Of a stretch of 64,000 bases of DNA, positions 1-19,487 are shown piece by piece. The notes beneath the pieces were generated by a model, which was not told where the DNA came from, did not search any database, and worked only from the letters and a program-made list of their open reading frames with translations. Positions within the stretch are counted from its first letter, which is position 1. Each line of letters opens with the position of its first letter. The position numbers and the translations under genes were made by a program. The DNA comes from an uncultured delta proteobacterium. Its GTDB lineage: Bacteria > Desulfobacterota > BSN033 > UBA1163. The stretch spans positions 256,001 through 320,000 of the forward strand of contig CAWHBU010000001.1 of the NCBI GenBank assembly GCA_963827685.1. Reading direction: 5' to 3'.

Positions 1-150
1 GAAAAGAAGGAGGAACTGATTAAGAACGTCACCAATGCCATTGCCGATACGCTTCGGATTCCAAAAGAACGGGTTCACATCGTCCTGAACGAAGTCCCAA
101 AAGAAAATATCGGCCGTGGTGGCGTGCCTCTTTCTAAAATAGATCAATGA
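1..150 (+). CDS. 4-oxalocrotonate tautomerase family protein, 3' part (runs off window)
   Basis: Frame 1 reads EKKEELIKNVTNAIADTLRIPKERVHIVLNEVPKENIGRGGVPLSKIDQ*, typical 4-OT C-terminal half. Confidence 0.85.
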   Translation, partial: EKKEELIKNVTNAIADTLRIPKERVHIVLNEVPKENIGRGGVPLSKIDQ

Positions 151-253
151 CGCCGATTCAACGGAGGCCAAGGAACAGGTGGATTAAAACAGCTATTGCA
201 TTATTTTCTGAATTCTGCTGTTCTGAATTCAGAAAATAATGTGGAGGTGCGAA

Positions 254-541
254 GTGCAAACAGCAAGATCCATCACAGCAGAAATTAAGTCCCGTGGCCA
301 GTTGACCATTCCTAAGAAAATTAGGGTCATGAGCCATCTCGAAGAAGGGCAAGTCGTCTCAATCATTCCGGTGGGCGATTCGGTCATTATTACCCCCAAG
401 AAACTTGAGCTCGACGAAGCAAGAAGAGAGATCAGAAAGATCGTTAGAGCGGTCGGCCTTACTCCTGAAGATCTCCTGGTAGGGCTCAAGGAAGAACGAG
501 AAAAGTTATATCAAGTGACCTATGGGAAAAAAAGTCGTTAG
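254..541 (+). CDS. AbrB/MazE/SpoVT-family antitoxin
   Basis: IKSRGQLTIPKKIR...LEEGQVVSII swapped-hairpin motif; GGAGG RBS before GTG 254. Confidence 0.85.
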   Translation: MQTARSITAEIKSRGQLTIPKKIRVMSHLEEGQVVSIIPVGDSVIITPKKLELDEARREIRKIVRAVGLTPEDLLVGLKEEREKLYQVTYGKKSR

Positions 542-638
542 GGAACTCGACAAGTATCCATTTCATGTCGTGACCCCCTCAGAATTTATTGATTCAATTC
601 TTCCTGAGGTTCTAAAAGGACTCGAAGAAAAAGAATGA
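522..638 (+). pseudogene. Internally deleted PIN-domain toxin remnant (38 aa)
   Basis: Overlaps antitoxin stop; MGKKVVR fused directly to a PIN-like C-terminus (YPFHVVTPSEFID); catalytic core absent. Confidence 0.6.
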
Positions 639-724
639 ATAAAGGTTGGTTCTCCTTACACCTCACGCCTCACGGTGTTTGATGCGTTATGCGAGATTCT
701 GTATGTGAGAAACGGAAAGTTTGA

Positions 725-1318
725 TTGATGAATAAGACTAAAAAACCCAGTCTCTATGTCATCGCCGGCCCAAATGGCTCGGGGAAGACAACCTTTTCCA
801 AAAAGTTTCTTCCTGATTATGTGGAATGTTTGGAATTTGTCAATGTTGATCTTATCGCCAAAGGTCTCTCTCCGTTTACCCCGGGAAGGGCGATGCTTCA
901 AGCAGGAAGGATTATGCTAGAACAAATCCATTCTTTGGGTAACCGCGGCATTGATTTTGGTTTTGAAACGACGCTTGCCGGAAAGACCTACCTTAGACTG
1001 CTGAATGAATTGAAACAGAAAGGCTACTCTATCCATCTTTTCTTCCTGTGGATTAAAAGCGTAAAACTCGCCCTGGAGCGTATTGAATTACGTGTTCAAC
1101 AAGGGGGACATTCTATTCCAGAAGCGACGGTTCGGCGTCGCTTTCGAAGAGGAATTCTTAACTTTTTCAATGAGTACCAACCTATTGTTGATTCATGGGT
1201 CATTTTTGACAATTCAGAAGACATTCCTAAAATGATTGCATTTAAAGAATCCGGAAAATTAGAAATCCTTGATTCTGCGTCATTTGACATGTTATTAAAA
1301 TATAAGGATCAAAAATGA
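725..1318 (+). CDS. Zeta-toxin/AAA_33-like P-loop ATPase (COG4185-like)
   Basis: IAGPNGSGKTT Walker A, FVNVDLIA, FETTL, RVQQGGHSIP motifs. Confidence 0.9.
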   Translation: MMNKTKKPSLYVIAGPNGSGKTTFSKKFLPDYVECLEFVNVDLIAKGLSPFTPGRAMLQAGRIMLEQIHSLGNRGIDFGFETTLAGKTYLRLLNELKQKGYSIHLFFLWIKSVKLALERIELRVQQGGHSIPEATVRRRFRRGILNFFNEYQPIVDSWVIFDNSEDIPKMIAFKESGKLEILDSASFDMLLKYKDQK

Positions 1319-1530
1319 AGACCCGCGGGAAAAAGAACCATAAGTTTTTAGCCTACATGGCCGAAAAAGCCTTTAAAGAGGCTGTTGCTGAAGCGATTGA
1401 TGAACACCGGCGGAACGGTGTTCCGATTGCCGTATGGCGTAATGGGAAAGTCGTGCTTGTACCTCCTTCTCAAATGATGGTCCGTGAGCCTCAAACCGAA
1501 TATCTCGTCTCAAAAAAAAAGAACCGCTAG
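1315..1530 (+). CDS. Small hypothetical protein, probable partner/antitoxin of the zeta-like ATPase
   Basis: ATGA overlap with upstream gene; AVAEAIDEHRRNGVPIAVWRNGKVV pattern common beside this ATPase family. Confidence 0.7.
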   Translation: MKTRGKKNHKFLAYMAEKAFKEAVAEAIDEHRRNGVPIAVWRNGKVVLVPPSQMMVREPQTEYLVSKKKNR

Positions 1531-1933
1531 AGTAGAAAGGCATCTGCCTTCGGCACTCAGCATCCGGGTGTCAGCGATCAGGAATTAGGGATCAACTGTC
1601 TGCCGTCGGCGTTCAGGTATATCTCCGCGCCTCCTCCATTCCGCAATCCGCAATCCGCATTTGGGATGCTCCAGAAAAATAGAAAGGTGAGGGTGGATGG
1701 GTTAATTCAACTTTCAAGACCATGACACCTTTGACTGTTCCAAAGTTGCATTTCAATAAAAAGATAAAAAGTGACATTTATTGTCGGCTCACCGATAGAC
1801 ACTTCATCCCGCTATACGTGATACATCTTGTTTTCTCTTATGATATTGATACCTTTAACTACCTGGCATCATTCTTGCTGAGAAAAGAATAGAAGTAAAA
1901 CGAGGAGAACAAAGCCAAACGGCGAGTAATCGA

Positions 1934-2037
1934 CCCATTCGACTTTTCGGTCTGAAGCCCGGGGTATGCTCAGGGTTGATACTGAGCGGCGCTTTCCCAC
2001 CCCGATTTAGAAATGGGGTTTGGCGCCGTCGAACGTA
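1934..2037. repeat. MITE/REP-like element (family shared with 40457..40586)
   Basis: Short imperfect terminal IRs (CATTCGAC...GTCGAACG), internal hairpins; aligns to reverse complement of 40457..40586. Confidence 0.55.
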
Positions 2038-2088
2038 TCAATGGGGCCCTGTGTGACCGGTGTATCTGAGCGGCCAAGTTTGAGGTAG

Positions 2089-2991
2089 ATGGTGGAGCAA
2101 GGGAGTTTTCAAGGAATTGCGGCAGGCGTAGAACGAATCATGGAGAATGCCCGTTCCGACCTGAGAGAGGCGATGGACCAATTTGAGGAACTATGCTTGA
2201 CGATTACCGAGGAGAGGGATGTTCCAATAGATATCATTACCGAGACCCGCCAAACCTATAAAAAAATTCAGGATCAACTCACGAAGATCAGCGGAGCCAG
2301 GCAACTCTTAGAAGGCAAATACAGGCACTATTATCGCCGTAACTATCAGCGCGAAAAAGAAATCATGCAAATTGCATTTTTGGCTAAGAGTTTGTACCTG
2401 ACATTCGAGGAAACAGAAGCAAAGCGCAAGCTAAAGGGTATGGAAGAATATTCTGAGGCGCACAGTCAGCCAATACCGTTTCCATGGTTTCAATCCAAGG
2501 AAAATCAGATCCTTCTTTTAAGAAATCTACGCAATCTAGACGAGTTGGACTATAAAACCAAATTTGAATTGGGATTTGAGCGGAGACAAGAGGTAATCCA
2601 GAACGCGATTCGAAGCATCTTCCTCTTTGCCTTATTAGGGGAGGCAAAGTTGATCGATATCCTTCAATCCCGCATGCGATTCCGAGAATATGATATCACA
2701 GAGCGTTATAAAGAGGACGAGTTCCGTGGGGCTTTAACCCGCTTAAAGGAGGTATCTCCTTCAGAAGTACAGAAGGTCCTTCGACGCATCGTAGGCACCA
2801 GTGAATTTTTGAAACTGAAATGCTTGCTTCTTAGGATTCAATCTCAAGATGATCTCAAAAAAGCGACCGTACGTTCTGCAGAAGATATTTTACGAGGGAT
2901 GGGCTCAATCATCTCAACCATATTGAAAAGTCAGTACATCACAGGAACCCACATTGGGTGCCAGGTCTATACTATTGATAGATCATTCTAA
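2089..2991 (+). CDS. Hypothetical protein, N-terminal coiled coil plus degenerate GGDEF-like C-terminal domain; paralog of 63585..64000; native C-terminus probably replaced after ~2900
   Basis: Shared blocks with the 63.6 kb ORF: NLRxLxELDY, RxRExDIxERY, LKCLLL; similarity ends at GMG (~2900). Confidence 0.7.
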   Translation: MVEQGSFQGIAAGVERIMENARSDLREAMDQFEELCLTITEERDVPIDIITETRQTYKKIQDQLTKISGARQLLEGKYRHYYRRNYQREKEIMQIAFLAKSLYLTFEETEAKRKLKGMEEYSEAHSQPIPFPWFQSKENQILLLRNLRNLDELDYKTKFELGFERRQEVIQNAIRSIFLFALLGEAKLIDILQSRMRFREYDITERYKEDEFRGALTRLKEVSPSEVQKVLRRIVGTSEFLKLKCLLLRIQSQDDLKKATVRSAEDILRGMGSIISTILKSQYITGTHIGCQVYTIDRSF

Positions 2992-3165
2992 TTTGGGATG
3001 TTCCTACATTCATTGAAACAGTTTAGGATAAGGAAAGTAACAAAGGATAAATGAAATATTAGGATTTCAAAAGAGGCTGTTATATACTTTAGGTTTTCCT
3101 TCCCAATGTTTTTTACAAGATGTCTACAAACCTTGAGAAAACGATAAAATGCGTGTTGAGCAGGG

Positions 3166-4479
3166 TTATGTCCCTTGATCCTCCAGAGGCCCCGTCAACA
3201 GTGAGTCCTGCAAAATGATCCCCTTCTCCGCATAAATGGGGTGGACCATTTTTCTCAAAGAGGGAAGTTTTTTGGCAAAGAGGACCGAACCAAAAATACA
3301 TAGGATGCCGCCGATCATCGTCGTCCCGGGTGCTCCGATTGCACTCGCTAAGCTGCCAGCGAAGAGACTGCCAAAAGGAACCATTCCCATGAAGGCCATG
3401 GCATAAAAACTCATCACCCGTCCCCGCTTATCCTCGTCCACAATGGTCTGAAGCAGCGTGTTTGTCGAGGTCATTTGAACCATCATTCCAAATCCTGTGG
3501 GGACCATCATCGCCATGGATAACCAAAACAGGCGAGAGAAGGAAAATCCTATGAGCCCGATTCCAAAGAGGCTCGAAGCGATGATAACAATTCGTCCCAA
3601 GCCGAGGACACTCCTCCGTGACGCAAGAAAAATGGCTCCTGCCAGAGCTCCCACGCCCGTAGCCCCGAGAAGAAAACCGAGCGTTTGCGGTCCACCGTGA
3701 AGGATCTTTCCCGCAAAAACAGGCATGAGGACGGTGTAGGGCATTCCCATGAAACTGATGAGCGCAAGCAGAAGAAGCAGGGACCGGATGGGGACAAATC
3801 CGAAGGCGTAGCGATAGCCTTCTTTTAAACCCTGCCATAACGGAGTGCTCTGTCTGTCTTTCTTTTTCGGGGTAATTCGCATCGCTAAAAGGGCTGCGAT
3901 CACCGTGATAAAGCTCAATCCGTTCAGAAGGAAACACAATCCTTCCCCCAAAGCAGCGATCAGCATCCCTGCCACCGAGGGGCCGACCAAGCGGGCACCA
4001 TTCACCATTGAAGAGTTAAGGGCGATGGCATTCCCCAGATCCTCCCGCCGCTCGATCATATCCACGACAAAGGATTGACGAACAGGGATATCAAAGGCGT
4101 TTATTAGACCGAGAAAAAAGGCCAAAGCGATGATTTGCCAGATGACAATCGTTTCCGTCAGGACCAGGGCTGCCAGGATCAGCGCTTGAATCATGGAAAG
4201 GACTTGGGTGGCCACAAGAAGGTGGTGGCGATTCCATCGGTCCACGAGTACGCCGGCGAAAGAGGCAAGTAGGAAAGTGGGAATCCGACCGGCGAAGCCC
4301 ACCACGCCCAGTAGAAAGCTTGATTGTGTTAATCGAAATACCAACCAGCTGATGGCAGTGAGCTGGAGCCAGGTGCCGATCAACGAAATGCTCTGGCCGC
4401 CAAAGAAGAGGCGGTAATTTCGGTGCGAGAGGGCACGGAAGATCAGGCCTAAGCCTTTGGGATTCGGGGAAAAATTCAT
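3166..4479 (-). CDS. MFS transporter (MFS_3/DUF894-like)
   Basis: FRALSHRNYRLFFGGQSISLIGTW start, 12 hydrophobic segments, RGRVMSFY motif. Confidence 0.92.
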   Translation of the reverse strand: MNFSPNPKGLGLIFRALSHRNYRLFFGGQSISLIGTWLQLTAISWLVFRLTQSSFLLGVVGFAGRIPTFLLASFAGVLVDRWNRHHLLVATQVLSMIQALILAALVLTETIVIWQIIALAFFLGLINAFDIPVRQSFVVDMIERREDLGNAIALNSSMVNGARLVGPSVAGMLIAALGEGLCFLLNGLSFITVIAALLAMRITPKKKDRQSTPLWQGLKEGYRYAFGFVPIRSLLLLLALISFMGMPYTVLMPVFAGKILHGGPQTLGFLLGATGVGALAGAIFLASRRSVLGLGRIVIIASSLFGIGLIGFSFSRLFWLSMAMMVPTGFGMMVQMTSTNTLLQTIVDEDKRGRVMSFYAMAFMGMVPFGSLFAGSLASAIGAPGTTMIGGILCIFGSVLFAKKLPSLRKMVHPIYAEKGIILQDSLLTGPLEDQGT

Positions 4480-4560
4480 TCCTTATTCCTATTTCAATTT
4501 TTTCAGTATATCCGATAGGTGACCATGAATTCAATGGATGGCCTGAACCAAGGGTTATCG

Positions 4561-4622
4561 AGGGGATAGGGTCAGGTCTTGCAATCACACAGTTCATAAA
4601 ACAAGAGAGGTGTCATCCATAA
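4561..4622 (+). repeat. Composite array repeat copy (GGGTCAGGTCTTGCAATCACAC...CATCCATAA)
   Basis: Near-identical to 7481..7553 and 9391..9462. Confidence 0.9.
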
Positions 4623-4939
4623 TAGGGCAGATGGGGGGACGCGGAGATACGGTGAACAGAGATGAGGAGATATGGAAACATCTAGGATTGCGGAGTACGG
4701 AGTTAATAAAACAACGAATGAATAAGTTATCGGGTTACTAAGTGATTAAGTGTCTTTGCCAGAATTTGGGTTGGCGGACAGTATCAAGACAACCCCTCCT
4801 GCAATTTCACCTGCTACTGTCCGCTCCCGACAGATCAACTTTTCTAGGCTTTTTTTCAGCCTACTTTCTATGCTCCTCCTCCCCTCTTCCAGATTTTCCT
4901 TGAGACTTTTGTAGTTGTCTTTGTTGCTGAATAGTCTTT

Positions 4940-5047
4940 GGGGTCAAAGCTACATTATACACTTTGCTTGATAGAGATCAGAGGGGGCGTCCATAAGATT
5001 ATAAGAATCTTAAAAGGGATTTAGCTCATCCATAAAAAAGTTGGCCC
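4940..5047 (+). repeat. Divergent array repeat parts: GGGGTCAAAGCTACATTATACACTTT (4940), GGGGCGTCCATAA (~4984), CATCCATAAAAAAGTTGGCCC (5027)
   Basis: Same GGGGTCA and CATCCATAAAAAAGTTGGC cores as the other copies. Confidence 0.7.
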
Positions 5048-5426
5048 ATTCGAATGCGGAATGCAGATTGCGGATTGCGGAATGCAAATTGTAAACGCGA
5101 ATTCCAGAGTCATTGGATCATTTGGGATATTCCAAAAGTAAGTCCTGGTAGAACTCCGAAGACAACTTAAAAATAGATAGAATGTCAACCTTGTTCAAAA
5201 TAGGATTCTCAACGCAGAGACGCAAAGGACGCGGAGAAGAGGAACTGGCATGAAGATTGGGATCATCGGGAATACGAGAGACATCGTGAGGAAATGTGGG
5301 ATACCAAATTCTATGGGGTCCAGTGGATTCAGACTTGAAAATTGAGATTCGCGGTAATCTGTATGGTGGAACTTGACGGTCAGACAATCGGAAAACGTCC
5401 TAGAAAATGATCAGTCACTATTTCCT

Positions 5427-6032
5427 ATGGAGCCTATAAATCTAAATCTCATCCAAGAAATTTATCACCTCTGGGAACCAGTTTACCCCTATTTAGGCCA
5501 ACAGATCCACGAACTTTATCACCGCCAAGATGGAAACATTCTGGAAATTGGGCCATTCAGTGGCGTCATTTTTAATTTACAAAAAAGGAATATAGGCAGT
5601 TCCTTCTTAATTGCAACTTTCCCGTCTGGAATGGGTAATTATTTTCAAGAAGAGGCAATAAAACAAAAGGTGAATGATAAGATCAGGGTCATTGGAACTG
5701 ATCCAGCTTTAACCGGTATAGAAGAAAACAACATAGACCTTGCTATTTTCAGAGGAGCTTTTTTCTTTCCTTCGCTGTTTAAAGTTAATTTTTCAGTAAT
5801 TTATCGAATTTTAAAAACAAATGGGATTGCATTTATTGGAGGAGGATTTGGTAAATTCACCCCAAATAGCGTCATTAAGGACATTGGAAAGAGGTCACGG
5901 GAACTCAACCTTCAGATTGGTAAGATTGAGATAAACGAGGATAGATTACGACAAGATATCCAAATTGAGGGTATAGAAGGGGAAATCAAAATTATCTCTG
6001 AAGGGGGATTATGGGTTTTGATGAAAAAGTAG
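5427..6032 (+). CDS. Class I SAM-dependent methyltransferase-like protein (divergent)
   Basis: ILEIGPFSG motif I variant, IDLAIFRGAFFF, YRILKTNGIAFIGGGFG. Confidence 0.75.
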   Translation: MEPINLNLIQEIYHLWEPVYPYLGQQIHELYHRQDGNILEIGPFSGVIFNLQKRNIGSSFLIATFPSGMGNYFQEEAIKQKVNDKIRVIGTDPALTGIEENNIDLAIFRGAFFFPSLFKVNFSVIYRILKTNGIAFIGGGFGKFTPNSVIKDIGKRSRELNLQIGKIEINEDRLRQDIQIEGIEGEIKIISEGGLWVLMKK

Positions 6033-6040
6033 TGCGGATC

Positions 6041-6100
6041 AGGGCTGCGGGGTCAGGCTTGGGATATTGCGATTTGGTGGCCTCCATAAAAAAGTTGGCC
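6041..6100 (+). repeat. Composite array repeat copy (short form)
   Basis: AGGGCTGCGGGGTCAGGCTTGGGATATTGCGATTT joined directly to GGTGGCCTCCATAAAAAAGTTGGCC. Confidence 0.85.
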
Positions 6101-6472
6101 GTACCAAAGGTATTCGATGAAAAAACAATGGTAAAAATTGGGATGATTTCACGCCGTGAGCCATTCAAAAAGTTTGACGAAGAATAAAAAGGAGCAATGA
6201 GACAAATCGAATATTGACATTTTTCGCTAATATCCTTCCAAAATTTCCAAGTTTCTAGATAACAGCATTATCTTTAAACTCTTGTGTGTGGTTCTAAGGC
6301 TCGAATATTATTGTTTTTTTAGATTTTCCTAATTCTTATATTGAATTGGCACAAGATGTGCTATATTAAATTTGTTTCCGCCATTAATATTTATTGACCT
6401 AATCAGGATTATTGTGATCTTTTGTTTGTACTCTGATATATCTTCGGTTAAAATTCCATTAGAGATACAAGA

Positions 6473-7054
6473 ATGATGCATATGCAGGATGTAGCGAAAG
6501 AGAAAAGAATTAACGCTATCCGTTATTTTTGCAAGAATACCAAGGACCTTACCGAAACAAAACTTTACAAGCTTCTTTATTTTCTAGATTTCCTTCATTT
6601 CAAAGAAGTTGGAAGACCGGTCACGGACCTTGAATATTTTGCCTGGAATTACGGCCCTGTCCCAGCGAAACTTTTTTTTGAAATAAAAGAGAAAAAGGCT
6701 CCTAAGGAAATATTGATGTGCATCATAGAAGAGAAGGACGCAGAAACAGGCAAAAAAGTGAAGACTTCTTTTAAATCCTTGCAGGCTCCTGACCTAAATG
6801 TATTCTCAGAGAGAGAGATTGAAATTTTGGAGAGGGTAGCATTTATTTTTAAGGATGCCAAAGCCAAGGATATGACTGAAATAACTCATTTAAAAAATGA
6901 ACCTTGGCATAAAACTCTTGAGTCGAAAGGGGAAAAGTCAAAGATAGATTTCTTATTATCCCTGGATAAGGATGCGAAGATTGATAAAGACCTAGCAACG
7001 GAGCGTCTGCAATTATCAAATGAGATGAAGCAGCTTTTTGGAAGTGAAAAATAA
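6473..7054 (+). CDS. Panacea-domain (DUF4065/SocA-like) antitoxin
   Basis: TKLYKLLYFLDF, Y.AWNYGPVP, THLKNEPW motifs. Confidence 0.9.
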   Translation: MMHMQDVAKEKRINAIRYFCKNTKDLTETKLYKLLYFLDFLHFKEVGRPVTDLEYFAWNYGPVPAKLFFEIKEKKAPKEILMCIIEEKDAETGKKVKTSFKSLQAPDLNVFSEREIEILERVAFIFKDAKAKDMTEITHLKNEPWHKTLESKGEKSKIDFLLSLDKDAKIDKDLATERLQLSNEMKQLFGSEK

Positions 7055-7063
7055 GGGAATAGA

Positions 7064-7468
7064 TTGGAAAAGGGAACCATTCTATTTCACGAAAAATTTA
7101 GATTTGTTAATGGGGAATTAGGTGAGAAGTTATTAATCATTTTAAACACCCCAGACCCTAAAGTAGAACCATATCTCCTTTGTCGAGTCACTTCTCAGGA
7201 AAGCAACAAACCAAAGATCTTTGGGTGCCACCAAGACTTGTCCCTCTTTTTTCTTCCTGCCAACCATGATTTTTTTGAAAAGGATACTTGGGTTCAATTT
7301 TATGAAATTTTCCCGTTTGAGGCAACCACACTTCTTCGGGATCATTTCAATAAACAATTAAGCGTATTAGGGAAACTTAAGGATTTGACAATCCAGCAAA
7401 TGATGAATTGCATCCGAAAGATTAAAGATATATCAGTGATACATAAAAAAATGATTTTGAAAAAATAA
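7064..7468 (+). CDS. Putative toxin partner of Panacea antitoxin (possibly PemK/MazF-like fold)
   Basis: 9 bp downstream of antitoxin; GTIL...F.F..G..KLLIILN...YLLCRVTSQ resembles PemK-like beta pattern. Confidence 0.55.
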   Translation: MEKGTILFHEKFRFVNGELGEKLLIILNTPDPKVEPYLLCRVTSQESNKPKIFGCHQDLSLFFLPANHDFFEKDTWVQFYEIFPFEATTLLRDHFNKQLSVLGKLKDLTIQQMMNCIRKIKDISVIHKKMILKK

Positions 7469-7480
7469 ATCAATATCTTG

Positions 7481-7553
7481 AGGGCTCTGGGGCCAGGTCT
7501 TGCAATCACACATTTCATAAAACAAGAGAGGTATCATCCATAAAAAAGTTGGC
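7481..7553 (+). repeat. Composite array repeat copy (full form)
   Basis: AGGGCTCTGGGGCCAGGTCTTGCAATCACACATTTCATAAAACAAGAGAGGTATCATCCATAAAAAAGTTGGC. Confidence 0.92.
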
Positions 7554-7632
7554 ACAGATTTCCCAGGTGAAACCTTCGGTGTCCTTATAATATAAAGGGC
7601 CTGATCTGCAGGCTGCCAATTCTTAAATCCAC

Positions 7633-8142
7633 TTACCACAAGGAAAGCTTCTCTACTGCCAAACGAGCGGCTTTTTCTATATCTGTTGAGAATAAGGAAT
7701 TCATCTCAACCATCGAACGGCCCAATACCCGACCCGTTTCGGTATCGATGATCTTCACCTGAAGGTACCAACTCAAAAGGCTTGGAGAGTAAATCATTCC
7801 CGTTATCAGGGCCTGGGCACCCACCCTCCTACCAATCTTTAATCTGGTTGCATCATCCAGTTGGTTAAGATTGAATTTCTCTTCTTGAGGGTTGTCCAAG
7901 AACTGCCGCCCGCCCAAAATTGAAATCTGCGGGAATCTCTCGTGAAAATTCCGGGCAAAGGCCTTAGCCACTTCGCCAGTATCATCTCCTTCAAAGGGAA
8001 GGACTGCAATGTTTTCGTATTTTAAGAATTCTTTTCTGAGAAAACCACCCCCACCTGGCTGGGCACAGCCCGTGACAGAGAGAACGATCAATAGAAACAA
8101 ACAGAGAGAGATACAGACTTTCCCCTTCCCTTTTCTTTTCAT
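7633..8142 (-). CDS. Lipoprotein, CsgG/HfaB/LpoB-like domain
   Basis: Signal peptide with lipobox VTGC; IAVLPFEG, IGRRVGAQALITG, VKIIDTETGRVL. Confidence 0.8.
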   Translation of the reverse strand: MKRKGKGKVCISLCLFLLIVLSVTGCAQPGGGGFLRKEFLKYENIAVLPFEGDDTGEVAKAFARNFHERFPQISILGGRQFLDNPQEEKFNLNQLDDATRLKIGRRVGAQALITGMIYSPSLLSWYLQVKIIDTETGRVLGRSMVEMNSLFSTDIEKAARLAVEKLSLW

Positions 8143-8193
8143 TCCGGTCCTCCTAAAATATTGTAACTCCCCTTCTCTTTTCCCTCAAGAGCT

Positions 8194-8228
8194 ACAGCCT
8201 GGGGGTCAGGCAACGGTAATTCGGTATT
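8194..8228 (+). repeat. Divergent GGGGTCAGG array repeat (first part only)
   Basis: ACAGCCTGGGGGTCAGGCAACGGTAATTCGGTATT, same length and ATT end as other first parts. Confidence 0.55.
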
Positions 8229-8476
8229 GGCGTAAATCTTGAGAGAAATGTAACGATTGAAGAATTGCCCCCATGATCCACTTTTTCTTCCTGAAAGAGT
8301 GATTTTCAAATATTGCTAGGCCATCCAACATTTCACTTGGTAATCCCGAAAGCCGAAGCTTACGCCCTTACGCTTTCTTAAAAGCCAACACTAATACCAA
8401 AATCAAAAATTCAATCGTCCTTAAACAATTTTGACTTTTTCACTCAGGGTCGGCTAAAATTGGTTCGAGCATTAGG

Positions 8477-9382
8477 ATGGGGCACTCTCTCATGGTAGAA
8501 AAAATGGGAATGGAACCTTCCAAATATACAATTCTTGTCGTGGATGATAAAGAGTTATTAAGAAACCTAGTCGACACTTTTCTATCCAAACTGGGACATT
8601 CATGCGTCACAGCAATTGATGGAGTTGATGCTCTGGAGAAAATGAAGGGAAATAAAATCGATGCCGTAGTAACAGACATGAGAATGCCCAACATGGATGG
8701 AATTACTCTTACAAGTAAGATTTCAATACAATACCCTGGACTCCCGGTAATGATCATGACAGCGTTTGACGAAGGAGATACTGCAGGATTAGCAATTACT
8801 GTTGGGGCTCGAGAATTTATAAGAAAGCCATTCTCTCTAGATGAGTTTTCCGTTAGATTACATAAGATGATCAATGACTCGGAAGCTCAAAGGGGAATGA
8901 AGAAGGATAAAGACATAGATAAGTTTATCGAAGAATTTATGAATGAGTTAGAGCCTCCGAAGCAAATGAAGAGGGAAAAGGGTGTAGAGGATGGGTCGCG
9001 AGAACTTTTAGATGAGTTAGACCCCCGTCGTTATGCCCACAAAGAAATGAATAAAGACACCGATGCCTTTTTGCAACATTGTCGGCAGATCCATTTACTT
9101 GCCCTACGATTGGCAGAACACAACATCTCTATTTATAGCCATTCCTTCGATATGCTCGCATTTGGCAGCTGGGTTCTTGTCATGGGAACGCGCAAGGATC
9201 GTATTAGGGTTACTTGGGAGGGAAAGGACGGTATCCTTAAAACCGAAAGAGCTTCAATCCCAGATTCTGAGACTATAATCCGATGGCAAGAAATAACATC
9301 GGAAATAGAAAACACCTTGCCAAATGCTGAAAGCACATTCAAATCTATTGAAGAATTTGTTAAGAAAAACATCAAGGCATAA
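8477..9382 (+). CDS. Response regulator receiver domain fused in frame to an unrelated 111-aa cassette-like ORF (9047..9382)
   Basis: ILVVDD, VVTDMRMPNMDG, FIRKPF receiver motifs; abrupt change after DELDP at ~9026. Confidence 0.8.
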   Translation: MGHSLMVEKMGMEPSKYTILVVDDKELLRNLVDTFLSKLGHSCVTAIDGVDALEKMKGNKIDAVVTDMRMPNMDGITLTSKISIQYPGLPVMIMTAFDEGDTAGLAITVGAREFIRKPFSLDEFSVRLHKMINDSEAQRGMKKDKDIDKFIEEFMNELEPPKQMKREKGVEDGSRELLDELDPRRYAHKEMNKDTDAFLQHCRQIHLLALRLAEHNISIYSHSFDMLAFGSWVLVMGTRKDRIRVTWEGKDGILKTERASIPDSETIIRWQEITSEIENTLPNAESTFKSIEEFVKKNIKA

Positions 9383-9390
9383 CAAGGGAA
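9030..9390 (+). mobile_element. Integron-type gene cassette remnant with truncated attC
   Basis: Starts GTTATGCC (9030), ATG 9047, stop lies in perfectly complementary GGCATAAC (9376..9383). Confidence 0.6.
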
Positions 9391-9462
9391 AGGCTGGGGG
9401 GCCAGGTCTTGCAATCACACATTTCATAAAACAAGAGAGGTCATCCATAAAAAAATTGGCCC
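9391..9462 (+). repeat. Composite array repeat copy (full form)
   Basis: AGGCTGGGGGGCCAGGTCTTGCAATCACACATTTCATAAAACAAGAGAGGTCATCCATAAAAAAATTGGCC. Confidence 0.92.
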
Positions 9463-9531
9463 TGCAAACAAGAGATCGCAAAGAGCATGGCGCATAGAGC
9501 AGAGTGTCATTTGTAAAGAGAGTGAAAAAGT

Positions 9532-9777
9532 TCAGCCTGATAGGTTTTTTATTTTTATCCCTTTACCTTTCTTAAGGCTTTCCCTGGCGGATGCAACTCG
9601 CGCTAAGAACCTGGGATCGTGCTCTAACCTGTAGTCAAACCAGTCCTCTTCGGACCCGAAGCCAATTAAAACACCGGCCGGTTTTCCATGACGTGTGATG
9701 ATAATCTCTTCTTTTTCCGCCAAATCCAGGTATTCTGAAAGGCGGCCCTTAACCTCTGACAGTGCAATCCTTTTCAT
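9532..9777 (-). CDS. Phd/YefM-family antitoxin
   Basis: MKRIALSEVKGRLSEYL...EEIIITRHGKPAGVL. Confidence 0.9.
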   Translation of the reverse strand: MKRIALSEVKGRLSEYLDLAEKEEIIITRHGKPAGVLIGFGSEEDWFDYRLEHDPRFLARVASARESLKKGKGIKIKNLSG

Positions 9778-9989
9778 TTCTTCTCTCCCATTTCCTCCAG
9801 CCACTCAGTGGCTTTGGACTTCGGTATAATTGCCAAGACTTCTACCGTCGCTTCCACAACCATAAAAAACCCTGATTTCATCGACTCTCAATCGATACTG
9901 TGGTCGACTGATACCCTGTAACTTTTTTATCCGACTCTTGCTTATTTTTTGCGGCTCAAACCTTAGATGTTTTTCGATCGCCTCTATGA
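9774..9989 (-). pseudogene. RelE/ParE-family toxin, 5'-truncated and frameshifted
   Basis: IEAIEKHLRFEPQKISKSRIKKLQGISRPQYRLRVDEIRVFY, then 2-nt shift to VVEATVEVLAIIPK...*; ATGA overlap with antitoxin; N-terminus missing at repeat. Confidence 0.85.
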
Positions 9990-9992
9990 GTG

Positions 9993-10018
9993 GGTGGCAT
10001 CCATAAAAAAGTTGGCCC
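9993..10018 (+). repeat. Array repeat, second part only
   Basis: GGTGGCATCCATAAAAAAGTTGGCCC. Confidence 0.85.
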
Positions 10019-10053
10019 TGCCCATTAAAGTGAAGATGGGGTATTCAATTGCG

Positions 10054-10073
10054 CCTGCCTGCCGGTAGGCAGG
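10054..10073. repeat. Small palindromic CCTGCC...GGCAGG element (relatives at 23459, 26756, 31921, 35444, 51558, 59239)
   Basis: CCTGCCTGCCGGTAGGCAGG, identical to 59239..59258. Confidence 0.85.
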
Positions 10074-10157
10074 GAATGCGGATTGCCGAATGCGGAATTT
10101 AAAACTAAAAAGAGCATAGAGCGGAGCGTTTAGACCCCTTGCGCTTCACGCCTGGAT

Positions 10158-11192
10158 TTATTTCTCTCGCAGCCTTTTGGACACTTCTGCGGTCAACTCA
10201 CAAACCTTTTCAGCCAAAGGAATAGGAAGTGACGCAGCTCCACAACTGGGGGTGATGATGGTTTTTTGAAGAAGGATTGGGTCAATTCCTTTCTTTGAGA
10301 GAGTTTCAATTCCTTCTTTGAAACGTTTGATCAGACTTTGCACATCCTCTTTTAGAATAGCCTCACTCGTTGGGACGATGCCCCAGGCTAAGATGCCTCC
10401 TCTTTCTAAGAATGCTCTTAAGTCCTTTGGATAAAGAGAAAGTGTCTCCAGATATTCATATGCGTCGAAGCTGAGAATATCGAGATGCGTCGAGAGAAGC
10501 ACACTCCAGTCGGTATTTCCACAGCAGTGAGTTCCCTTTAATCCTTTCACAGCATCAAAACATTCATTTAATGAATGAACGACATCCTCCCGATTCAGGC
10601 CTGAGAAGGCAGAGCCAAATGAGGAGAGGGAGGGTTCGTCAAAAAAGAGTATCGTTGGGATCCCGGGAAAGAGGTCATTGAACTTCTTTTCCATCCATCG
10701 TGCTTTCAATGAAAGGTGTTTGACGAGGATGTCTCTTAAAGACGGGTCGTAAAAGATAGGTTTCTGCTCCTGATCGGCTAAGGCGAGACCAAACGTGACC
10801 GGCCCTGTGATCTGGCCCTTGATATATTTTATCTTCTTTCGGTGGTCTTTTGACGAGAGGGTTTTTAAGATCCGGAGCCCCCTTGCAAAATCCTCCGTGA
10901 TTTGAAAAGGGTCAAGATCGCCCTCCTCGAAACGTTGGTAAAATTTCTCGATTTCTTTCTCAAATCCCTGAGACGTCTCTATCCAAACCCTTTGTTCCTT
11001 TTCATTCCATCTTAAGGAAGGAAACCCTTCAGAATATTGAACGACCATACCTTCCAGAAAAGACCGCTTTGGCAGTTGGGGCCAGAATGGGATTTCGGGG
11101 AAGTTCTTGAAGATGAGTCCGAAGACCTCCTTCTCATCCTGATGAGGGAAGGACCCGATTCCTGTTGTGATGAAAGGGTATTGAAATTCCAT
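10158..11192 (-). CDS. Cobalamin-independent methionine synthase II-like (single-barrel MetE/Meth_synt_2) protein
   Basis: TGIGSFPH, PFWPQLP, KGQITGPVT, FFDEP, HCCGN, WGIVPT, ITPSCG Zn-ligand motifs. Confidence 0.85.
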   Translation of the reverse strand: MEFQYPFITTGIGSFPHQDEKEVFGLIFKNFPEIPFWPQLPKRSFLEGMVVQYSEGFPSLRWNEKEQRVWIETSQGFEKEIEKFYQRFEEGDLDPFQITEDFARGLRILKTLSSKDHRKKIKYIKGQITGPVTFGLALADQEQKPIFYDPSLRDILVKHLSLKARWMEKKFNDLFPGIPTILFFDEPSLSSFGSAFSGLNREDVVHSLNECFDAVKGLKGTHCCGNTDWSVLLSTHLDILSFDAYEYLETLSLYPKDLRAFLERGGILAWGIVPTSEAILKEDVQSLIKRFKEGIETLSKKGIDPILLQKTIITPSCGAASLPIPLAEKVCELTAEVSKRLREK

Positions 11193-11253
11193 AGCTTTTC
11201 ATAAAGGGATTTGACACAAAAAGTCAAGGAAATTTTGTCGAGCCCTGTTACTT

Positions 11254-11493
11254 CTCGGTCTCGGGTGCGGTTGGATCGGGGTGGTCTCCCCTCCGAAATC
11301 TCGCAAAGCGGATCATTGGAGAGAGGGGAATGGGCGGGCGGTGCTGAAGAGGCTGTTTTAAGGGTATTTACGCCTTGGCTCATCGCTCAAATGTGCCGCT
11401 TCCCGTGGTCGGGTCTTGTCGACAAGTTTTCTCCGGGGAGACCGCCCCGATCCTGGGCGTAGGATCTCCGCCCATCGCTGAGGGATTACCGAG
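11254..11493 (+). ncRNA. Candidate structured RNA (unassigned)
   Basis: 19-bp stem 11273..11291/11435..11453, closing CTCGGT/ACCGAG stem, inner stems with G-U pairs on + strand; no credible ORF. Confidence 0.4.
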
Positions 11494-11526
11494 CCCTTGA
11501 TAAACAGTGGATTCCAAATGTGAAAC

Positions 11527-11560
11527 TTGACAATTTAAAATTCGACGGTTATTTATAAAA
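11527..11560 (+). promoter_or_regulatory. Probable sigma70 promoter of groESL, separated from groES by IS200
   Basis: TTGACA followed ~17 bp later by TATTTATAAA. Confidence 0.5.
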
Positions 11561-11569
11561 AATACCTGT

Positions 11570-12096
11570 TGAATACCGCCCAGCTCTGCTGGGCGGATGA
11601 AAACAGGTTCGCGAAGCGATAAGACATGGTATAAGTACTGCATGAGCTCGATAAAAAGAACAAGCCATGCGGTCTACGATTTGAAATATCATATGGTATG
11701 GGTTCCCAAATATCGGAAGATGATATTGGGAGGTGAGTTGGCAAAAAGGCTTAAGATGAGTTTTGAGCAAATATCGGAGAGGTACGAGTTTGAGATAGAT
11801 ACGATGGAGGTAAAGGATGATCATGTTCATTTATTTTTGTCTGCCCCTCCTCGGTATTGTCCGGCAGAGATTGTGCAGATCATAAAGAGTATCTCGGCGA
11901 AAATGGTGTTCAAGCAGTTTCCAGAGGTGAAGAAAGAGCTTTGGGGTGGAGAGTTTTGGAGTGATGGGTATTTTGTTCGGTCTGTTGGAGACAAAGTTAC
12001 CTCTGAAGTCATACGTCGCTATATAAAGTATCAGCAACAGGAGCAATTAAGTTTTGAATTTTAATGCCCCGCAGCTCTGCTGCGGGGTTCTTTACT
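11570..12096 (+). mobile_element. IS200/IS605-family element (tnpA only)
   Basis: Subterminal hairpins CCGCCCAGCTCTGCTGGGCGG (11577) and CCCCGCAGCTCTGCTGCGGGG (12067) flanking tnpA; ends approximate. Confidence 0.85.
11642..12064 (+). CDS. tnpA: IS200-family Y1 (HUH) transposase
   Basis: YHMVWVPKYR, DHVHLF (HUH), FWSDGYFVRSVG, YIKYQ catalytic Tyr. Confidence 0.95.
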   Translation: MSSIKRTSHAVYDLKYHMVWVPKYRKMILGGELAKRLKMSFEQISERYEFEIDTMEVKDDHVHLFLSAPPRYCPAEIVQIIKSISAKMVFKQFPEVKKELWGGEFWSDGYFVRSVGDKVTSEVIRRYIKYQQQEQLSFEF

Positions 12097-12131
12097 TTGA
12101 ATAAATTTTAACAGAAGGGAGGTCTGTCTCT

Positions 12132-12419
12132 ATGAAGGTAAGGCCACTTCACGATCGGCTCATTGTTCAAAGATTGAAGGAGGAAGAGAAAACAAAAGGA
12201 GGAATCATCATCCCTGACACGGCCAAAGAAAAACCTATCGAGGGAAAAGTGATCGCCGTCGGGGCGGGAAGGATCAAGAAGGATGGGACCAAGATTCCTC
12301 TTGAGGTTAAGAAAGGCGATCGGGTCCTGTACGCAAAGTATGGAGGGACCGAGGTAAAGATCGATGGAGAAGAATATCTCATGATGAAAGAGGATGATAT
12401 CTTCGCCATCATTGAATGA
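12132..12419 (+). CDS. groES: Co-chaperonin GroES
   Basis: [30 protein letters not shown]. Confidence 0.98.
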
Positions 12420-14054
<1,635 letters not shown>

Positions 14055-14071
14055 CGAAGATTAATGAAAAA

Positions 14072-14103
14072 ATATGGGGGCGGATTTCAAAACCGCTCCC
14101 ATA
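14072..14103 (+). terminator. Hairpin after groEL (terminator or REP-like)
   Basis: ATATGGGGGCGG-loop-CCGCTCCCATAT. Confidence 0.5.
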
Positions 14104-14178
14104 TCGATTAAACAATTACCCTGAGACATGAGGGGGTTAAAACAATGGTGGCGCCGTTTATCCGAACGAAGGGCGACG

Positions 14179-14946
14179 CTACTCCCCTTTGAATACCGGT
14201 TCGCGCCTCTCCAGGAACGCCGTCATCCCTTCCCTCGCGTCATCGCTCTGGGTGAGCTTCTTTGACCATTCCCTGTCAACGCGGAGCCCCTCTTCAAGGC
14301 CCTTTTCGAGGCCCACGCTCATCCCATTCAGCACGGCTTTCACGGCAACGGGCGGCCGCTTGGCCAGCGCCAGCGCAAAGGTCATGGCTTCCTTCATTAA
14401 GTCGGCCGCGGGAACGACCCGGTCCGCAAGGCCGACGGCCAGCGCCTCCTGCCCCGAAAGCCTTTTGCTGAAAAGAATCATGTCCAGCGCCTTCGACTTG
14501 CCCAGCAGGCGCGGCAAGCGCTGTACGCCGCCCCAGCCTGGGGTGATGCCGAGATTCAATTCCGGGCATCCGATGACAGCCTTGGGATTGTCCGTCATAA
14601 AACGGAAATGACATACCAGCGCGAGCTCGCATCCGCCGCCAAGCGCGTATCCGTTGATGGCGGCGATCACCGGCTTGGAGAAACGTTCGATGTGGTTGAA
14701 TATGTCGTTGCCGTTGGGCCCTTTCTCGAGGTTCGCTATGTCCGTCACGTCCATTCCGGCACTGAAGCCCTTGTCGCCAGCGCCGGTGATGATAACGACC
14801 CTGGTATCCTTGCTCTGTTCCAGCTCAATGACAGCGCGGTTCAAGTCTTCGCGTATGCCGAGGTTTACTGAGTTGGCGGGGGGACGGTTGAGTGTAATAG
14901 TGCTCACAAAATCCTTCGTCGTTACGATGATGTTATTATAGCTCAT
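14179..14946 (-). CDS. Enoyl-CoA hydratase/isomerase
   Basis: ITLNRPP, FSAGMD, KPVIAAINGYALGGGCELAL, PELNLG..PGWGG. Confidence 0.95.
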   Translation of the reverse strand: MSYNNIIVTTKDFVSTITLNRPPANSVNLGIREDLNRAVIELEQSKDTRVVIITGAGDKGFSAGMDVTDIANLEKGPNGNDIFNHIERFSKPVIAAINGYALGGGCELALVCHFRFMTDNPKAVIGCPELNLGITPGWGGVQRLPRLLGKSKALDMILFSKRLSGQEALAVGLADRVVPAADLMKEAMTFALALAKRPPVAVKAVLNGMSVGLEKGLEEGLRVDREWSKKLTQSDDAREGMTAFLERREPVFKGE

Positions 14947-15366
14947 AGATGACCTCCAATCTGTTTTGGTTGGGAAGAATATACGAGAACTGGAGTTAAC
15001 TGTCAAGCATATCAGACCACAAAATTCCGCTTGACAACGTTTTTTTGTCCTGCTATCGTTCAAATCCGTAAGTTTCCCTGGCACATAAAAAATTCCAATC
15101 CGAACTTTACTCTTCTGGTGAATAAGATGAGAAGGTGTGGTCGTCAGAAGGTACCAATAGGATGCCTCCAGGGGAGATTGTTTTACTCCTTTGGAGGCTA
15201 TTGTATCTTAGTCGCCGATAAAGTTTAGCCGCTCAATAGGCTGAAACAGAAGGCTATGGGTTTAAATGATTTCTTTTCCTTCACGTTGGGAGTTTTAAGG
15301 GGATGATAGATTTTCCCTTTTTATTCGCCATCGGAGGATTGTACCATTTTGAGGATAAGGAGGAGG

Positions 15367-17229
15367 ATGGAAATGAACTGTAAAAAAAGATCTGCTCTTT
15401 GGTCCAGTGTCACTGTCTTGGTTCTTACCGTTGCAGTATTTATTGTAAACCCAGCTCAAACATGGGCATGCGACGATTACAACACGGTTGTCAAGACAGA
15501 TTATGGTAAGCTGAGAGGTTATGTGAATGAAGAAGCTCTTGTGTGGAAAGGTGTTCCCTATGCCAAGCCGCCAGTGGGTGAGCTACGGTGGAAGGCACCT
15601 CAGGATCCAAAGCCCTGGCACGGTGTTCGCGATGCGATTATACCGGCCGACAAGTGCACCCAACTCAATACACTCGAGGAATGGATTAACACCGGAGAAG
15701 TGGACCCGAACAGTAGTGAGGATTGCCTGTATGTCGATATATATCGTCCGAAGCGCTACACAAACCACGGGGAAAGACTGCCAGTCTATGTGTGGATTCA
15801 CGGAGGCTCCAACTACTTCGGGTCCGCCTGGCAATACGACGGCACGGCCCTGGCGACCCGATCGGATGTGGTCGTGGTGGTCGTCCAATACCGACTCGGT
15901 CCCATGGGGTGGTTCTATCATCCGGCGGTTCAGACCGGCGGTGCGGACAAGCATACCGATTCAGGAAACTTCGGAACGCTCGACCACGCCCAGGCCCTCA
16001 AGTGGGTTCGGGAAAACATCGACGCCTTCGGCGGCGACCCCCATAACATAACCATCACCGGCGAGTCCGCGGGTGCGCACAATGTGATGAACATGGTGGT
16101 GTCTCCTCTCGGCAAGGGCCTCTTCCGCCGGGCCATGTCCGAGAGCGGCGGGATGCGTACCGTGCCCCCCATAACGACCACGGACCCAAAAATCACGCCT
16201 GGGCTCACACAGGCAAATGACATCATTGAGAAGGTTATAAGATTAAAAGAGGGAAAAACCGCGGCAGAAGCAGCGGCGCGCCGCATAGACATGGAGAACG
16301 CTCATACCTTGGAAGCCTACCTGAGGTCGACAACTGCCGGGGACTTCTTCCTGGCTATGAATAAATATGGAACGTTGCCGACTTTCCCCGCGATCGAGGA
16401 CGGCAATGTCATCCCCACAGGAGGCTGGATTCCGGCAATCAAGGCGGGGAAACACAACAAGGTGCCGATCATTTTGGGGGCCAACGAATATGAGAGTAAG
16501 TCGTTTATGCCGCTCTTTGGGTCGTCCATCAAGCCTCTTGGGGTGCCTTCTGGCCCCTACACCTGGTTCGACCTGATCCATGTTCTGAGTAAAGATACAA
16601 CACCGCTCCTTACCGTGGACGACGTCCTGCCCACACAGCACGACAGAGACATCTACGAGCTAACGGGGTATTACGGCAGCAGGAACTGGAAGGCAAAGTA
16701 CGTGGACACGGTGGCCCATGAGCTCGCCAAGGTTCAGGACGACGTGTACGCATACCTCTTTAAGTGGGGTGGAGTCGGCTCAGGGCCGTCCCCATTTGAT
16801 TTCATCTACGGCGCGGGTCACGCCGCAGAGATCCCCTTCTTTTTCGGGAGTGACCAGGGCCTGTTCGGTTATCCGTTCGTCCCTGCGAACGAGGCCGGCC
16901 GAAAGCAGCTCCAATACGCCATGATGAAGTACCTTGCGAACTTCGCCTGGACTGGTAACCCGAACCACGACTTTTCATCTTACCCACGGTGGGAGAAATG
17001 GTCCCATTTCTTGTATCTCCCGAAGTGGAAGGAGTGGTCCAACACCCCGGGAGCGCCCAAGGCGATTGTCTTCGATGCCGATTTCCATCAGGCGCACATT
17101 GCGATGATGACCGAAGAACTGACCATAGAAGGAGTCACAGACGAGCTTGAAGCGGCGATGACGAGTAAGAAGCTGTCTCTCTATGAAGAGTTGGCAGCGC
17201 TCGCCTTCCAGTTCTCATCGCCCTGGTAG
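15367..17229 (+). CDS. Secreted type B carboxylesterase/lipase
   Basis: Signal peptide; GVPYAKPPVG, SEDCLY, WIHGGS, GESAG nucleophile, HAAEIPF. Confidence 0.95.
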   Translation: MEMNCKKRSALWSSVTVLVLTVAVFIVNPAQTWACDDYNTVVKTDYGKLRGYVNEEALVWKGVPYAKPPVGELRWKAPQDPKPWHGVRDAIIPADKCTQLNTLEEWINTGEVDPNSSEDCLYVDIYRPKRYTNHGERLPVYVWIHGGSNYFGSAWQYDGTALATRSDVVVVVVQYRLGPMGWFYHPAVQTGGADKHTDSGNFGTLDHAQALKWVRENIDAFGGDPHNITITGESAGAHNVMNMVVSPLGKGLFRRAMSESGGMRTVPPITTTDPKITPGLTQANDIIEKVIRLKEGKTAAEAAARRIDMENAHTLEAYLRSTTAGDFFLAMNKYGTLPTFPAIEDGNVIPTGGWIPAIKAGKHNKVPIILGANEYESKSFMPLFGSSIKPLGVPSGPYTWFDLIHVLSKDTTPLLTVDDVLPTQHDRDIYELTGYYGSRNWKAKYVDTVAHELAKVQDDVYAYLFKWGGVGSGPSPFDFIYGAGHAAEIPFFFGSDQGLFGYPFVPANEAGRKQLQYAMMKYLANFAWTGNPNHDFSSYPRWEKWSHFLYLPKWKEWSNTPGAPKAIVFDADFHQAHIAMMTEELTIEGVTDELEAAMTSKKLSLYEELAALAFQFSSPW

Positions 17230-17266
17230 GTGATCGAGAGCATGAGACACCTGGTTGAACTCTCTG

Positions 17267-17297
17267 GAGGGCAGGGGAAAAATCCCCTGCCCTCTTT
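17267..17297 (+). terminator. Rho-independent terminator
   Basis: GAGGGCAGGGGA-loop-TCCCCTGCCCTC followed by TTT. Confidence 0.7.
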
Positions 17298-17405
17298 CAT
17301 TCCGCTAACTTGGTTTTGCGATGTGGGTGAAAGAGTTGGCCAACACCTCATTTGGCAATGTCAGTCAGAGCAAAGCTCAATTTTCACAGAGCTTCACATT
17401 TGACA

Positions 17406-19379: not shown

Positions 19380-19432
19380 TGATCGCTCAAAATGAGAGAG
19401 ACATTACTCGTCAATTTCTGGTATATCCTTAT

Positions 19433-19487
19433 TGGGCGGGGTTAGAAAACCCCGCCTATCGAGATAGGCGGGACATTCCTGTCCCGC
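19433..19487. repeat. REP-like doublet
   Basis: GGCGGGGTTAGAAAACCCCGCC and GCGGGACATTCCTGTCCCGC hairpins. Confidence 0.5.

Follow-up and report, generated by a model that had tools for sequence, protein, structure and literature searches.

The DNA analysed here, referred to as the window, is a stretch of 64,000 nucleotides (nt) from an uncultured delta proteobacterium of the Desulfobacterota (GenBank assembly GCA_963827685.1, contig CAWHBU010000001.1, positions 256,001 to 320,000, forward strand). Its plus strand carries an open reading frame (ORF) at 8477..9382 in which a response-regulator receiver domain and a charged linker are followed by a C-terminal part of 111 residues (the C part), whose origin is considered in the following. 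A preliminary description of the locus had proposed that the last 111 codons are an integron cassette fused in frame to the response regulator, and this central inference is upheld by four independent cassette contexts and by the covariation of their R boxes. The features of the locus are:

8477..9382 (+): fused ORF, 301 amino acids (aa); receiver and linker are followed by what were once the leader and the ORF of a cassette
8531..8851 (+): receiver domain, residues 19-125, Pfam PF00072 (93.8 bits, E 9.8e-27)
8852..9021 (+): charged linker, native to the response-regulator family; nucleotide homology with short-form loci stops at 9019-9021
9022..9029 (+): joint, CCCCCGTC, 8 nt, inferred from sequence comparison, attC ends and gene tails
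9030..9046 (+): former cassette 5' end, including GTTATGC, and 17-nt leader; the homology with stand-alone cassettes starts exactly here
9047..9379 (+): former cassette ORF, 111 codons, of a family of stand-alone proteins of ~100-120 aa that belongs to no named family
9377..9383 (+): R'' box GCATAAC, which contains the stop codon and is the exact complement of GTTATGC at 9030
9384..9397 (+): attC remnant (spacer and part of the L'' arm), 14 nt; the remainder of the site is missing
9398..9463 (+): array repeat, left part GGGGCCAGGTCTTGCAATCACAC... and core TCCATAAAAAAATTGGCC; it bounds the truncated attC and lies outside the cassette

The sequence facts on which the proposal had been built (the ORF, the ATG at 9047, the motifs on the GTT side and on the stop side, and the 111 codons) were all confirmed. 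GACCCC spans 9020-9025 and GTTATGCC spans 9030-9037. Codon 191 is an in-frame ATG (9047), after which the ORF counts 111 codons including this one, and GGCATAAC occupies 9376-9383, the stop codon TAA being 9380-9382. Codons 185-190 (R-Y-A-H-K-E) correspond to the former 17-nt leader, now translated in the phase of the receiver gene. Since the array repeat starts at 9398-9400, 14 nt separate it from R'', in agreement with the earlier estimate that the attC is cut off by the repeat after ~15 bp. As to the receiver, its match to PF00072 is far above the cut-off (93.8 versus 30.2 bits), and residues D23, D24, D67, T95 and K117 are invariant in an alignment of 19 sequences; every residue needed being present, the domain is predicted to be phosphorylation-competent. 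The 8-nt inverted repeat that brackets the C part is by itself at chance level: nine perfect GTTN5...N5AAC pairs 250-500 nt apart occur on the plus strand of the window, and 50 shuffles yielded 4.1 on average and 9 at most. It acquires a meaning only through comparison with other loci.

Stand-alone relatives of the C part are integron cassettes

Four proteins were retrieved with residues 191-301 as the query. Two of them, P0122 (110 aa) and P0123 (119 aa), begin at a methionine aligned with the ATG at 9047, the other two being a 161-aa fragment of a long-form protein and a 76-aa piece on a 341-bp contig. A family profile searched against 1.84 billion representatives detected 206 clusters at E<=1e-3, 69 of them at E<=1e-10, and nearly all of the best 150 of these 206 clusters are ~100-120 aa long and align from end to end. 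No match to the C part and its relatives was found in Pfam (where the last 111 residues of the 301-aa protein are equally without a match), NCBIfam or PADLOC, and a protein atlas returned only unnamed clusters. Used as a single-protein query, the C part was found in 0/60 genomes of relatives, and the family profile was found in 2/401 genomes of the phylum, the host genome (G000) included; such misses mean not found rather than absent, as metagenome-assembled genomes assemble such regions poorly. The family is rare and patchy.

The stand-alone homologues that had been suggested as a check of the proposal therefore exist, and a full attC accompanies them in 4/4 independent contexts. Five stand-alone loci represent three of these contexts (L010/L011, L012/L014 and L013), the fourth being L067 from genome G332, which encodes a more distant family member of 104 aa. 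In L010, L012 and L013 the homology starts exactly at GTTGTGCC, aligned with GTTATGCC in the window, 17-22 nt before the ATG, and the sequence upstream of this GTT boundary is unrelated among these three loci and the window. Across the four contexts it begins with GTT(G/A)TGCC or GTTAGGC and ends at the GTT of the downstream attC. At its 3' end the homology among stand-alone loci extends ~90 nt beyond the position of the stop codon of the window, ending in ...TCGTT, after which the contexts differ.

Integron attC sites are composed of R and L boxes, an unpaired central spacer and extrahelical bases. The 3' stretch of the stand-alone loci reads, in this order, R'' GCACAAC, a 5-nt spacer, the arm AAT-C-GAGGCG-A-CAGGG, a loop, the arm CCCTG-CGCCTC-ATT, a 5-6-nt spacer and GTT, thereby providing R'' and R' boxes, a 14-bp stem and two conserved extrahelical bases; two more sites built in this way are found after neighbouring cassettes of L012 and L013. 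When the five sites are aligned, 97.6% of the cells are paired. Sliding the partners by 1-3 columns lowers this value to 35-49%, and 0/500 shuffles attain 97.6%. Moreover, 5/17 pairs have changed on both sides in a compensatory manner, and 5/5 sites have both unpaired bases of the '' arm. A covariance model built from the five sites gives 73-100 bits on the sites that follow the stand-alone genes. It also recognises the site of L067 (E 4.2e-9), where the cassette starts with GTTAGGC and the stop codon TAA lies inside the R'' box GCCTAAC, with three more matches on the same strand within 3.3 kb. The stretch from stop codon to GTT alone folds weakly (-3 to -7 kcal/mol), the true site beginning 27 nt upstream, inside the ORF; in L010, L012 and L013 the ORF extends through R'' into the attC stem.

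In a circular cassette, the R' box of the attC is completed by the bases that follow G|TT at the cassette start, which must therefore complement the cassette's own R''. Three types of R boxes were encountered, GTTATGC/GCATAAC in the window, GTTGTGC/GCACAAC in L010, L012 and L013, and GTTAGGC/GCCTAAC in L067, each R'' matching the start of its own cassette, and it is through this covariation across three types that the 8-nt inverted repeat of the window becomes evidence. An attC elsewhere in the host genome (contig C6, position 419246) has the identical boxes GCATAAC...GTTATGC. The layout of the window cassette, with a 17-nt leader, a single ORF and a TAA inside GCATAAC, is the same as in L067. 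Taken together, these data show that 9047-9379, with the preceding 17 nt and the following GCATAAC, is a former integron gene cassette.

The left boundary of this cassette is intact in the window. No match to the attC model was found in the window or in the short-form loci of genomes G009, G010 and G012, and a scan of 8900-9600 with the filters off gave nothing beyond noise. Reduced to R'' and 14 nt, the attC would no longer allow excision, and the window copy is called a former, non-mobile cassette because its attC is incomplete here and complete in the stand-alone homologues. In other sequencing runs, many differing contexts end at 9398-9400. A search of window positions 4000-12500 against Rfam gave 0 matches at E<=1.

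Some further observations were made on the stand-alone loci. Positions 51-131 of L012 hold an 'empty cassette' of ~75 nt between two GTT boundaries, consisting of nothing but a hairpin (-33.2 kcal/mol, z -7.3; 0/200 shuffles equally stable). In L013, the stand-alone gene at 1847-2210 is frameshifted into two ORFs (1847-2086 and 1986-2210), its attC being intact. Finally, L010 is a lone cassette of the C-part family, with one attC, beside housekeeping genes.

The breakpoint between receiver gene and cassette

The 301-aa protein has 420 homologues, and the counts given here refer to the best 120. Short forms account for 112/120; they cover ~57-67% of the query, measure 183-245 aa and typically end in ...LLDELEASLKKI or ...WNPPKNT, just beyond DEL. 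The expectation that receiver homologues would end near DELDP is thereby borne out. The remaining 8/120 (8 clusters) are long forms of 296-345 aa with 98-100% query coverage and 72-95% identity. Long and short forms are collinear through ...LLDEL, after which the short forms continue with EASLKKI or EASLKKIWNPPKNT and a stop codon, and the long forms with (D/S/H)PPRYA.KEMNKDT....

The same limit is met at the nucleotide level, as the blastn homology with loci of the same genus in G010, G012 and G009 ends at 9019, 9021 and 9021, respectively, and contigs of the public runs X1, X19 and X20 diverge from the window at 9021 into the short-form tail (GGCAAGCTTAAAGAAGATTT...). Other contigs span the joint, one from X1 covering 8955-9166 with 0 differences and one from X2 covering 8965-9385 with 8 differences. 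Since contigs from both runs cross the joint, the fusion is real DNA present in more than one sample and no assembly artefact. These comparisons show a breakpoint between the receiver-linker part and the cassette part.

Within the linker (8885-9021 and homologues), one to three copies of a unit of ~23 aa, ...DKDIQEFINELEPPKQMK..., are observed, and contigs from the RNA runs contain a joint that goes back by 74-75 nt at 8903-8977; the differences in copy number and this joint point to length variation by tandem repeats.

Origin and retention of the fusion

In a tree of receiver residues 12-146 comprising the 120 homologues and the window, the window and the eight long forms fall in one clade of 10 tips. 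The long forms being 72-95% identical and confined to this clade, with collinear junctions of equal length, they show a single fusion, which is common to eight relatives and hence older than the host genome. Full-length homologues in unrelated genomes would have told against the proposal; the eight full-length homologues that exist are all close relatives in this one clade. Compared pair by pair, the long forms are on average 89.9% identical in the receiver, 82.4% in the C part, 69.5% in the linker and 67.1% in the junction, which shows conservation of both domains. The conserved residues and motif of the C-part family are kept in 8/9 long forms, and the reading frame is open across the joint in 9/9.

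Integrons in the lineage

The host genome contains 12 matches to the attC model at E<=1, 7 of them below 1e-6, which are scattered singly or in pairs on contigs C2, C3, C4 and C6 and have textbook boxes, e.g., GCCTAAC...GTTCGGT. Its only match to an integron integrase (IntI) is a C-terminal remnant at C3:782919-783275 (L002 1492-1797, minus strand; 191 bits, model positions 197-315), an open frame of 141 aa located beside a toxin-antitoxin pair and housekeeping genes. Similar remnants are present in G010 (model positions 188-315) and G001 (190-315), which means either that the truncation is old and shared or that a short paralogue has been conserved. A full-length integron integrase (TIGR02249, above the curated cut-off) was detected in 4/15 genomes of the genus, and in L065 and L056 attC matches lie on the side and strand of the classical intI(-)/attC(+) geometry. 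The same attC family and an integron integrase thus occur in the lineage.

How the parts would have been joined

The following course of events would account for these observations. A cassette would have come to lie immediately 3' of a receiver-plus-linker response-regulator gene, which normally ends in ...LLDELEASLKKIWNPPKNT followed by a stop codon. Loss of the stop-codon region, most likely by deletion, would have joined the tail of the gene to the cassette a few bases upstream of GTT, whereby the untranslated leader of the cassette would have become the linker residues RYAHKE and the cassette ORF a second domain. The attC would subsequently have been trimmed to R'' and 14 nt. This fusion would have occurred once, in the ancestor of a small clade, and been retained under selection, its product presumably being a phosphorylation-controlled two-domain protein in which the receiver governs a small alpha-beta5-alpha module. 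As a whole, the reading of a former cassette that was joined by deletion to a regulator gene, lost its attC and was kept after one fusion is considered likely.

Concerning the joining step itself, we infer a deletion from the bases at the joint. The CCCCC of the joint stands in the same codon phase as AAC CCC CCT of the short-form tail, and PP is found at the joint position in most other long forms, which suggests that CCCCC probably derives from the tail of the gene itself, 24 nt having been lost in frame; these would encode EASLKKIW and parts of two flanking codons. The preliminary description had taken the neighbouring GACCCC as an inverted GGGGTC core, an assignment that finds no support, as this is a 6-mer and the short-form relatives natively carry GAACCCCCC in the same codon phase, as part of an NPP-coding tail. 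On the other side of the joint, GTCG before TT agrees with (A/G)TCG|TT, the 3' end most frequent among attC sites of the family, and this match suggests a remnant of a site that preceded the cassette. A deletion reaching from the gene tail to the end of a preceding attC would then be the simplest joining step, the main alternative being direct insertion and trimming.

According to this alternative, which shares the cassette origin, an integrase would have inserted the cassette at an attG in the ~50 nt between gene tail and repeat, and small deletions on either side would then have taken away the stop codon (left) and the greater part of the attC (right). Insertion of cassettes outside att sites has been reported in passages of bioRxiv 10.1101/2022.09.11.507474, and the lone cassette of L010 shows a member of the C-part family with a single attC next to housekeeping genes. 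Besides, the interval after the short-form gene of G012 contains CACGTCAG, which resembles the GTCG before GTT of the window, and the run of six G at 9394-9399, compared to four in the other repeat copies, fits a deletion ending in a G run. Against these points, GTCGTT or a fitting G|TT is present in 0/3 short-form loci, and more steps are required than for a single deletion from a neighbouring cassette, with the same origin and outcome. Direct insertion at an attG is therefore regarded as rather unlikely, and the deletion is preferred.

The role of the array repeat has to be considered in the same context, as the preliminary description had the cassette moved by a repeat system, i.e., the array would be a recombination system that captured the cassette and placed it at an inverted GGGGTC core in the gene. 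The cassette indeed lies within a module bounded by array repeats, the repeat core resembles a cassette-end site in that it is located 3' of a same-strand ORF in 31/36 copies, arrays occur in 14/15 genomes of the genus (reversed control: none), and in L013 an inverted left part of the repeat lies directly against the truncated attC that precedes the stand-alone cassette. In G012, however, the left part of the repeat is found ~39 nt after the stop codon of a short-form gene, which suggests that in the window the repeat probably stood downstream of the gene before the cassette came to lie between them. The left joint contains neither repeat core nor left part, and its GACCCC is explained by the AACCCCCC tail that short forms carry natively in this phase. 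On its left the insert starts with a GTT boundary of the integron type and not with a repeat boundary, and no tyrosine recombinase match was found near any repeat array. The repeat not being an attC either, movement by the array is unsupported, and we hold it to be very improbable. Hardly any credence is given to yet another explanation, in which the long ORF would be a read-through accident, the cassette protein being made alone from the ATG at 9047 and the fusion having no function. This internal ATG is kept in 8/9 long forms (P0005 has Ile), the stand-alone cassettes likewise lack an obvious ribosome-binding site, and contigs from the RNA runs give no evidence of a long product. Yet the frame is open in 9 long forms at 72-95% identity without any change in length, which argues for selection on the joined frame.

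Several points nevertheless weigh against the deletion-joined former cassette as preferred here. The attC calls come from our own covariance model and from inspection by eye, not from IntegronFinder, and, the window being devoid of a complete attC, the status of its cassette is established by comparison and by R''. The GTC(G) before GTT may be left over from a preceding attC, but it may also be attI sequence or belong to the 3' region of the regulator gene itself, where G012 has CACGTCAG, so that deletion is no more than a probable joining step. One short form, P0009, is nested inside the long-form clade. The other long forms were compared as proteins, a comparison that gives no direct view of the ancestral joint or of how the attC decayed. 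Finally, the RNA runs X19 and X20 cover the receiver part only, via short-form relatives, and are uninformative either way on the expression of long forms.

The added domain and its relation to known systems

The structure model of the C part (pLDDT 86, pTM 0.80) displays a helix, five strands and a helix (alpha-beta5-alpha). Foldseek identified no solved structure at E<=1e-3 for the C part. In a wider structural search, the best Z was 7.4, and capping-protein, Mediator, RWD, E2-like and small inhibitor or immunity proteins appeared at Z 5-7, values at the level of a common arrangement of elements and not of a confident fold match. As a guess of low confidence, drawn from this model, the C part might be a partner-binding module under phosphorylation control.

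Fusion of cassettes has been described in class 1 integrons, where, according to PMC4670013, partial or total loss of an attC joins neighbours, sometimes including their two ORFs, and abolishes solo movement. The present case resembles these fused cassettes in that loss of the attC prevents the cassette from moving alone. It differs from them in several respects: in the class 1 examples of that source both partners are cassettes within an integron and the upstream attC is lost, whereas the upstream partner here is a resident gene, whose family is present in 13/14 genomes of the genus, and the lack of attC model matches at the short-form loci of G009, G010 and G012 speaks against both partners being cassettes. 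Furthermore, the cassette leader has become coding and the locus lies outside any integron. Lone cassettes and attC clusters outside integrons, as well as attC x attG insertion with gene disruption, are reported in passages of bioRxiv 10.1101/2022.09.11.507474. In the same line, the present cassette resides in a chromosome far from any integrase, the host genome having scattered attC sites and an IntI remnant only; but here the host gene gained a domain in frame, for which those passages offer no example. Compared to receiver-only (CheY-like) regulators, the protein has an ordinary receiver with all phospho-acceptor residues, and its relatives possess only a charged, repeat-containing tail; unlike them, the clade gained a folded 111-aa domain whose family is otherwise found only as stand-alone proteins. 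Full-text literature searches retrieved no report of a cassette fused to a response regulator, which is not proof that none exists.

Integrons are usually regarded as stores of whole, self-contained genes. If the proposed history is correct, a response regulator acquired its output domain by domestication of a small cassette-borne protein, whose untranslated leader became a linker, and the combination was kept across species. The locus would then give a base-level route by which a cassette leaves an integron, loses its recombination site and becomes a domain of a resident signalling protein. It would also provide a searchable signature, namely GTT...R'' pairs bracketing the C-terminal domains of host genes, and a first way into the function of ~200 clusters of unnamed 110-aa proteins, the activity of the domain being presumably under phosphorylation control in this clade. 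A wider idea, that integron cassettes are a reservoir of protein domains and, more boldly, that the array repeats, whose conserved core contains GTT, form a second, non-hairpin cassette system exchanging material with the integron, is put forward as tentative and rather unlikely.

Array repeat and neighbouring modules

The direct repeat that starts at about 9399 measures ~65 nt and has further copies at 4569 and 7490, its right half being present at five places. Its parts in the window are:

5029-5046, 6083-6100, 7537-7554, 9444-9461 and 10000-10017: repeat cores, TCCATAAAAAAGTTGGCC
4569-4622, 7490-7536 and 9399-9443: repeat left parts, variable

The core TCCATAAAAAAGTTGGCC, often followed by runs of an ATGCGGA-like heptamer, occurs 55 times in the host genome at <=3 mismatches, with ~40 clear copies and arrays on contigs C1, C4, C5 and C7 at a spacing of 0.5-3 kb. 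Several identities were considered for the repeat and rejected. As an attC, it shows no structure beyond that of shuffles on either strand (folding z-scores -0.53 to +0.46), a heuristic scan of window positions 1-20000 gave 1 match compared to 1-3 in shuffles, and the covariance model gave no match. As an attI, the core is dissimilar to the attI region of L065. As a sigma-54 promoter or a dif-like site, judged by eye, it has a spacing one base too long and arms that are not inverted.

One copy of the repeat, at 4569-5048, is split: its left part ends in ...TCATCCATAA at 4622 and, after an insert of ~400 nt, the copy continues with TCATCCATAAAAAAGTTGGCC at 5026. A direct repeat of 10 nt thus stands on both sides of the insert, and the sequence just before 5026 belongs to a repeated family on C4, C5 and C7. 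At 8201-8215, GGGGGTCAGGCAACGG, which resembles the start of the left part of the repeat, is located at the seam between a lipoprotein gene (7633-8142, minus strand) and the regulator gene; in G012 the lipoprotein and regulator modules are ~3.3 kb apart and in the opposite order. The modules between repeats at 6473-7054, 7064-7468 and 9532-9804 (minus strand) carry genes of toxin-antitoxin type, which include a SocA/Panacea antitoxin domain (E 4.7e-22) with a 134-aa partner without family, and a Phd/YefM antitoxin (E 2e-11) beside which no toxin gene was recognised. Further along the window, 11597-12064 (plus strand) encodes an IS200-like Y1 transposase (PF01797, E 5.7e-42), and G+C-rich palindromes such as GCCTGCCTGCCGGTAGGCAGGG at 10053 and 59238 look like REP-type elements.

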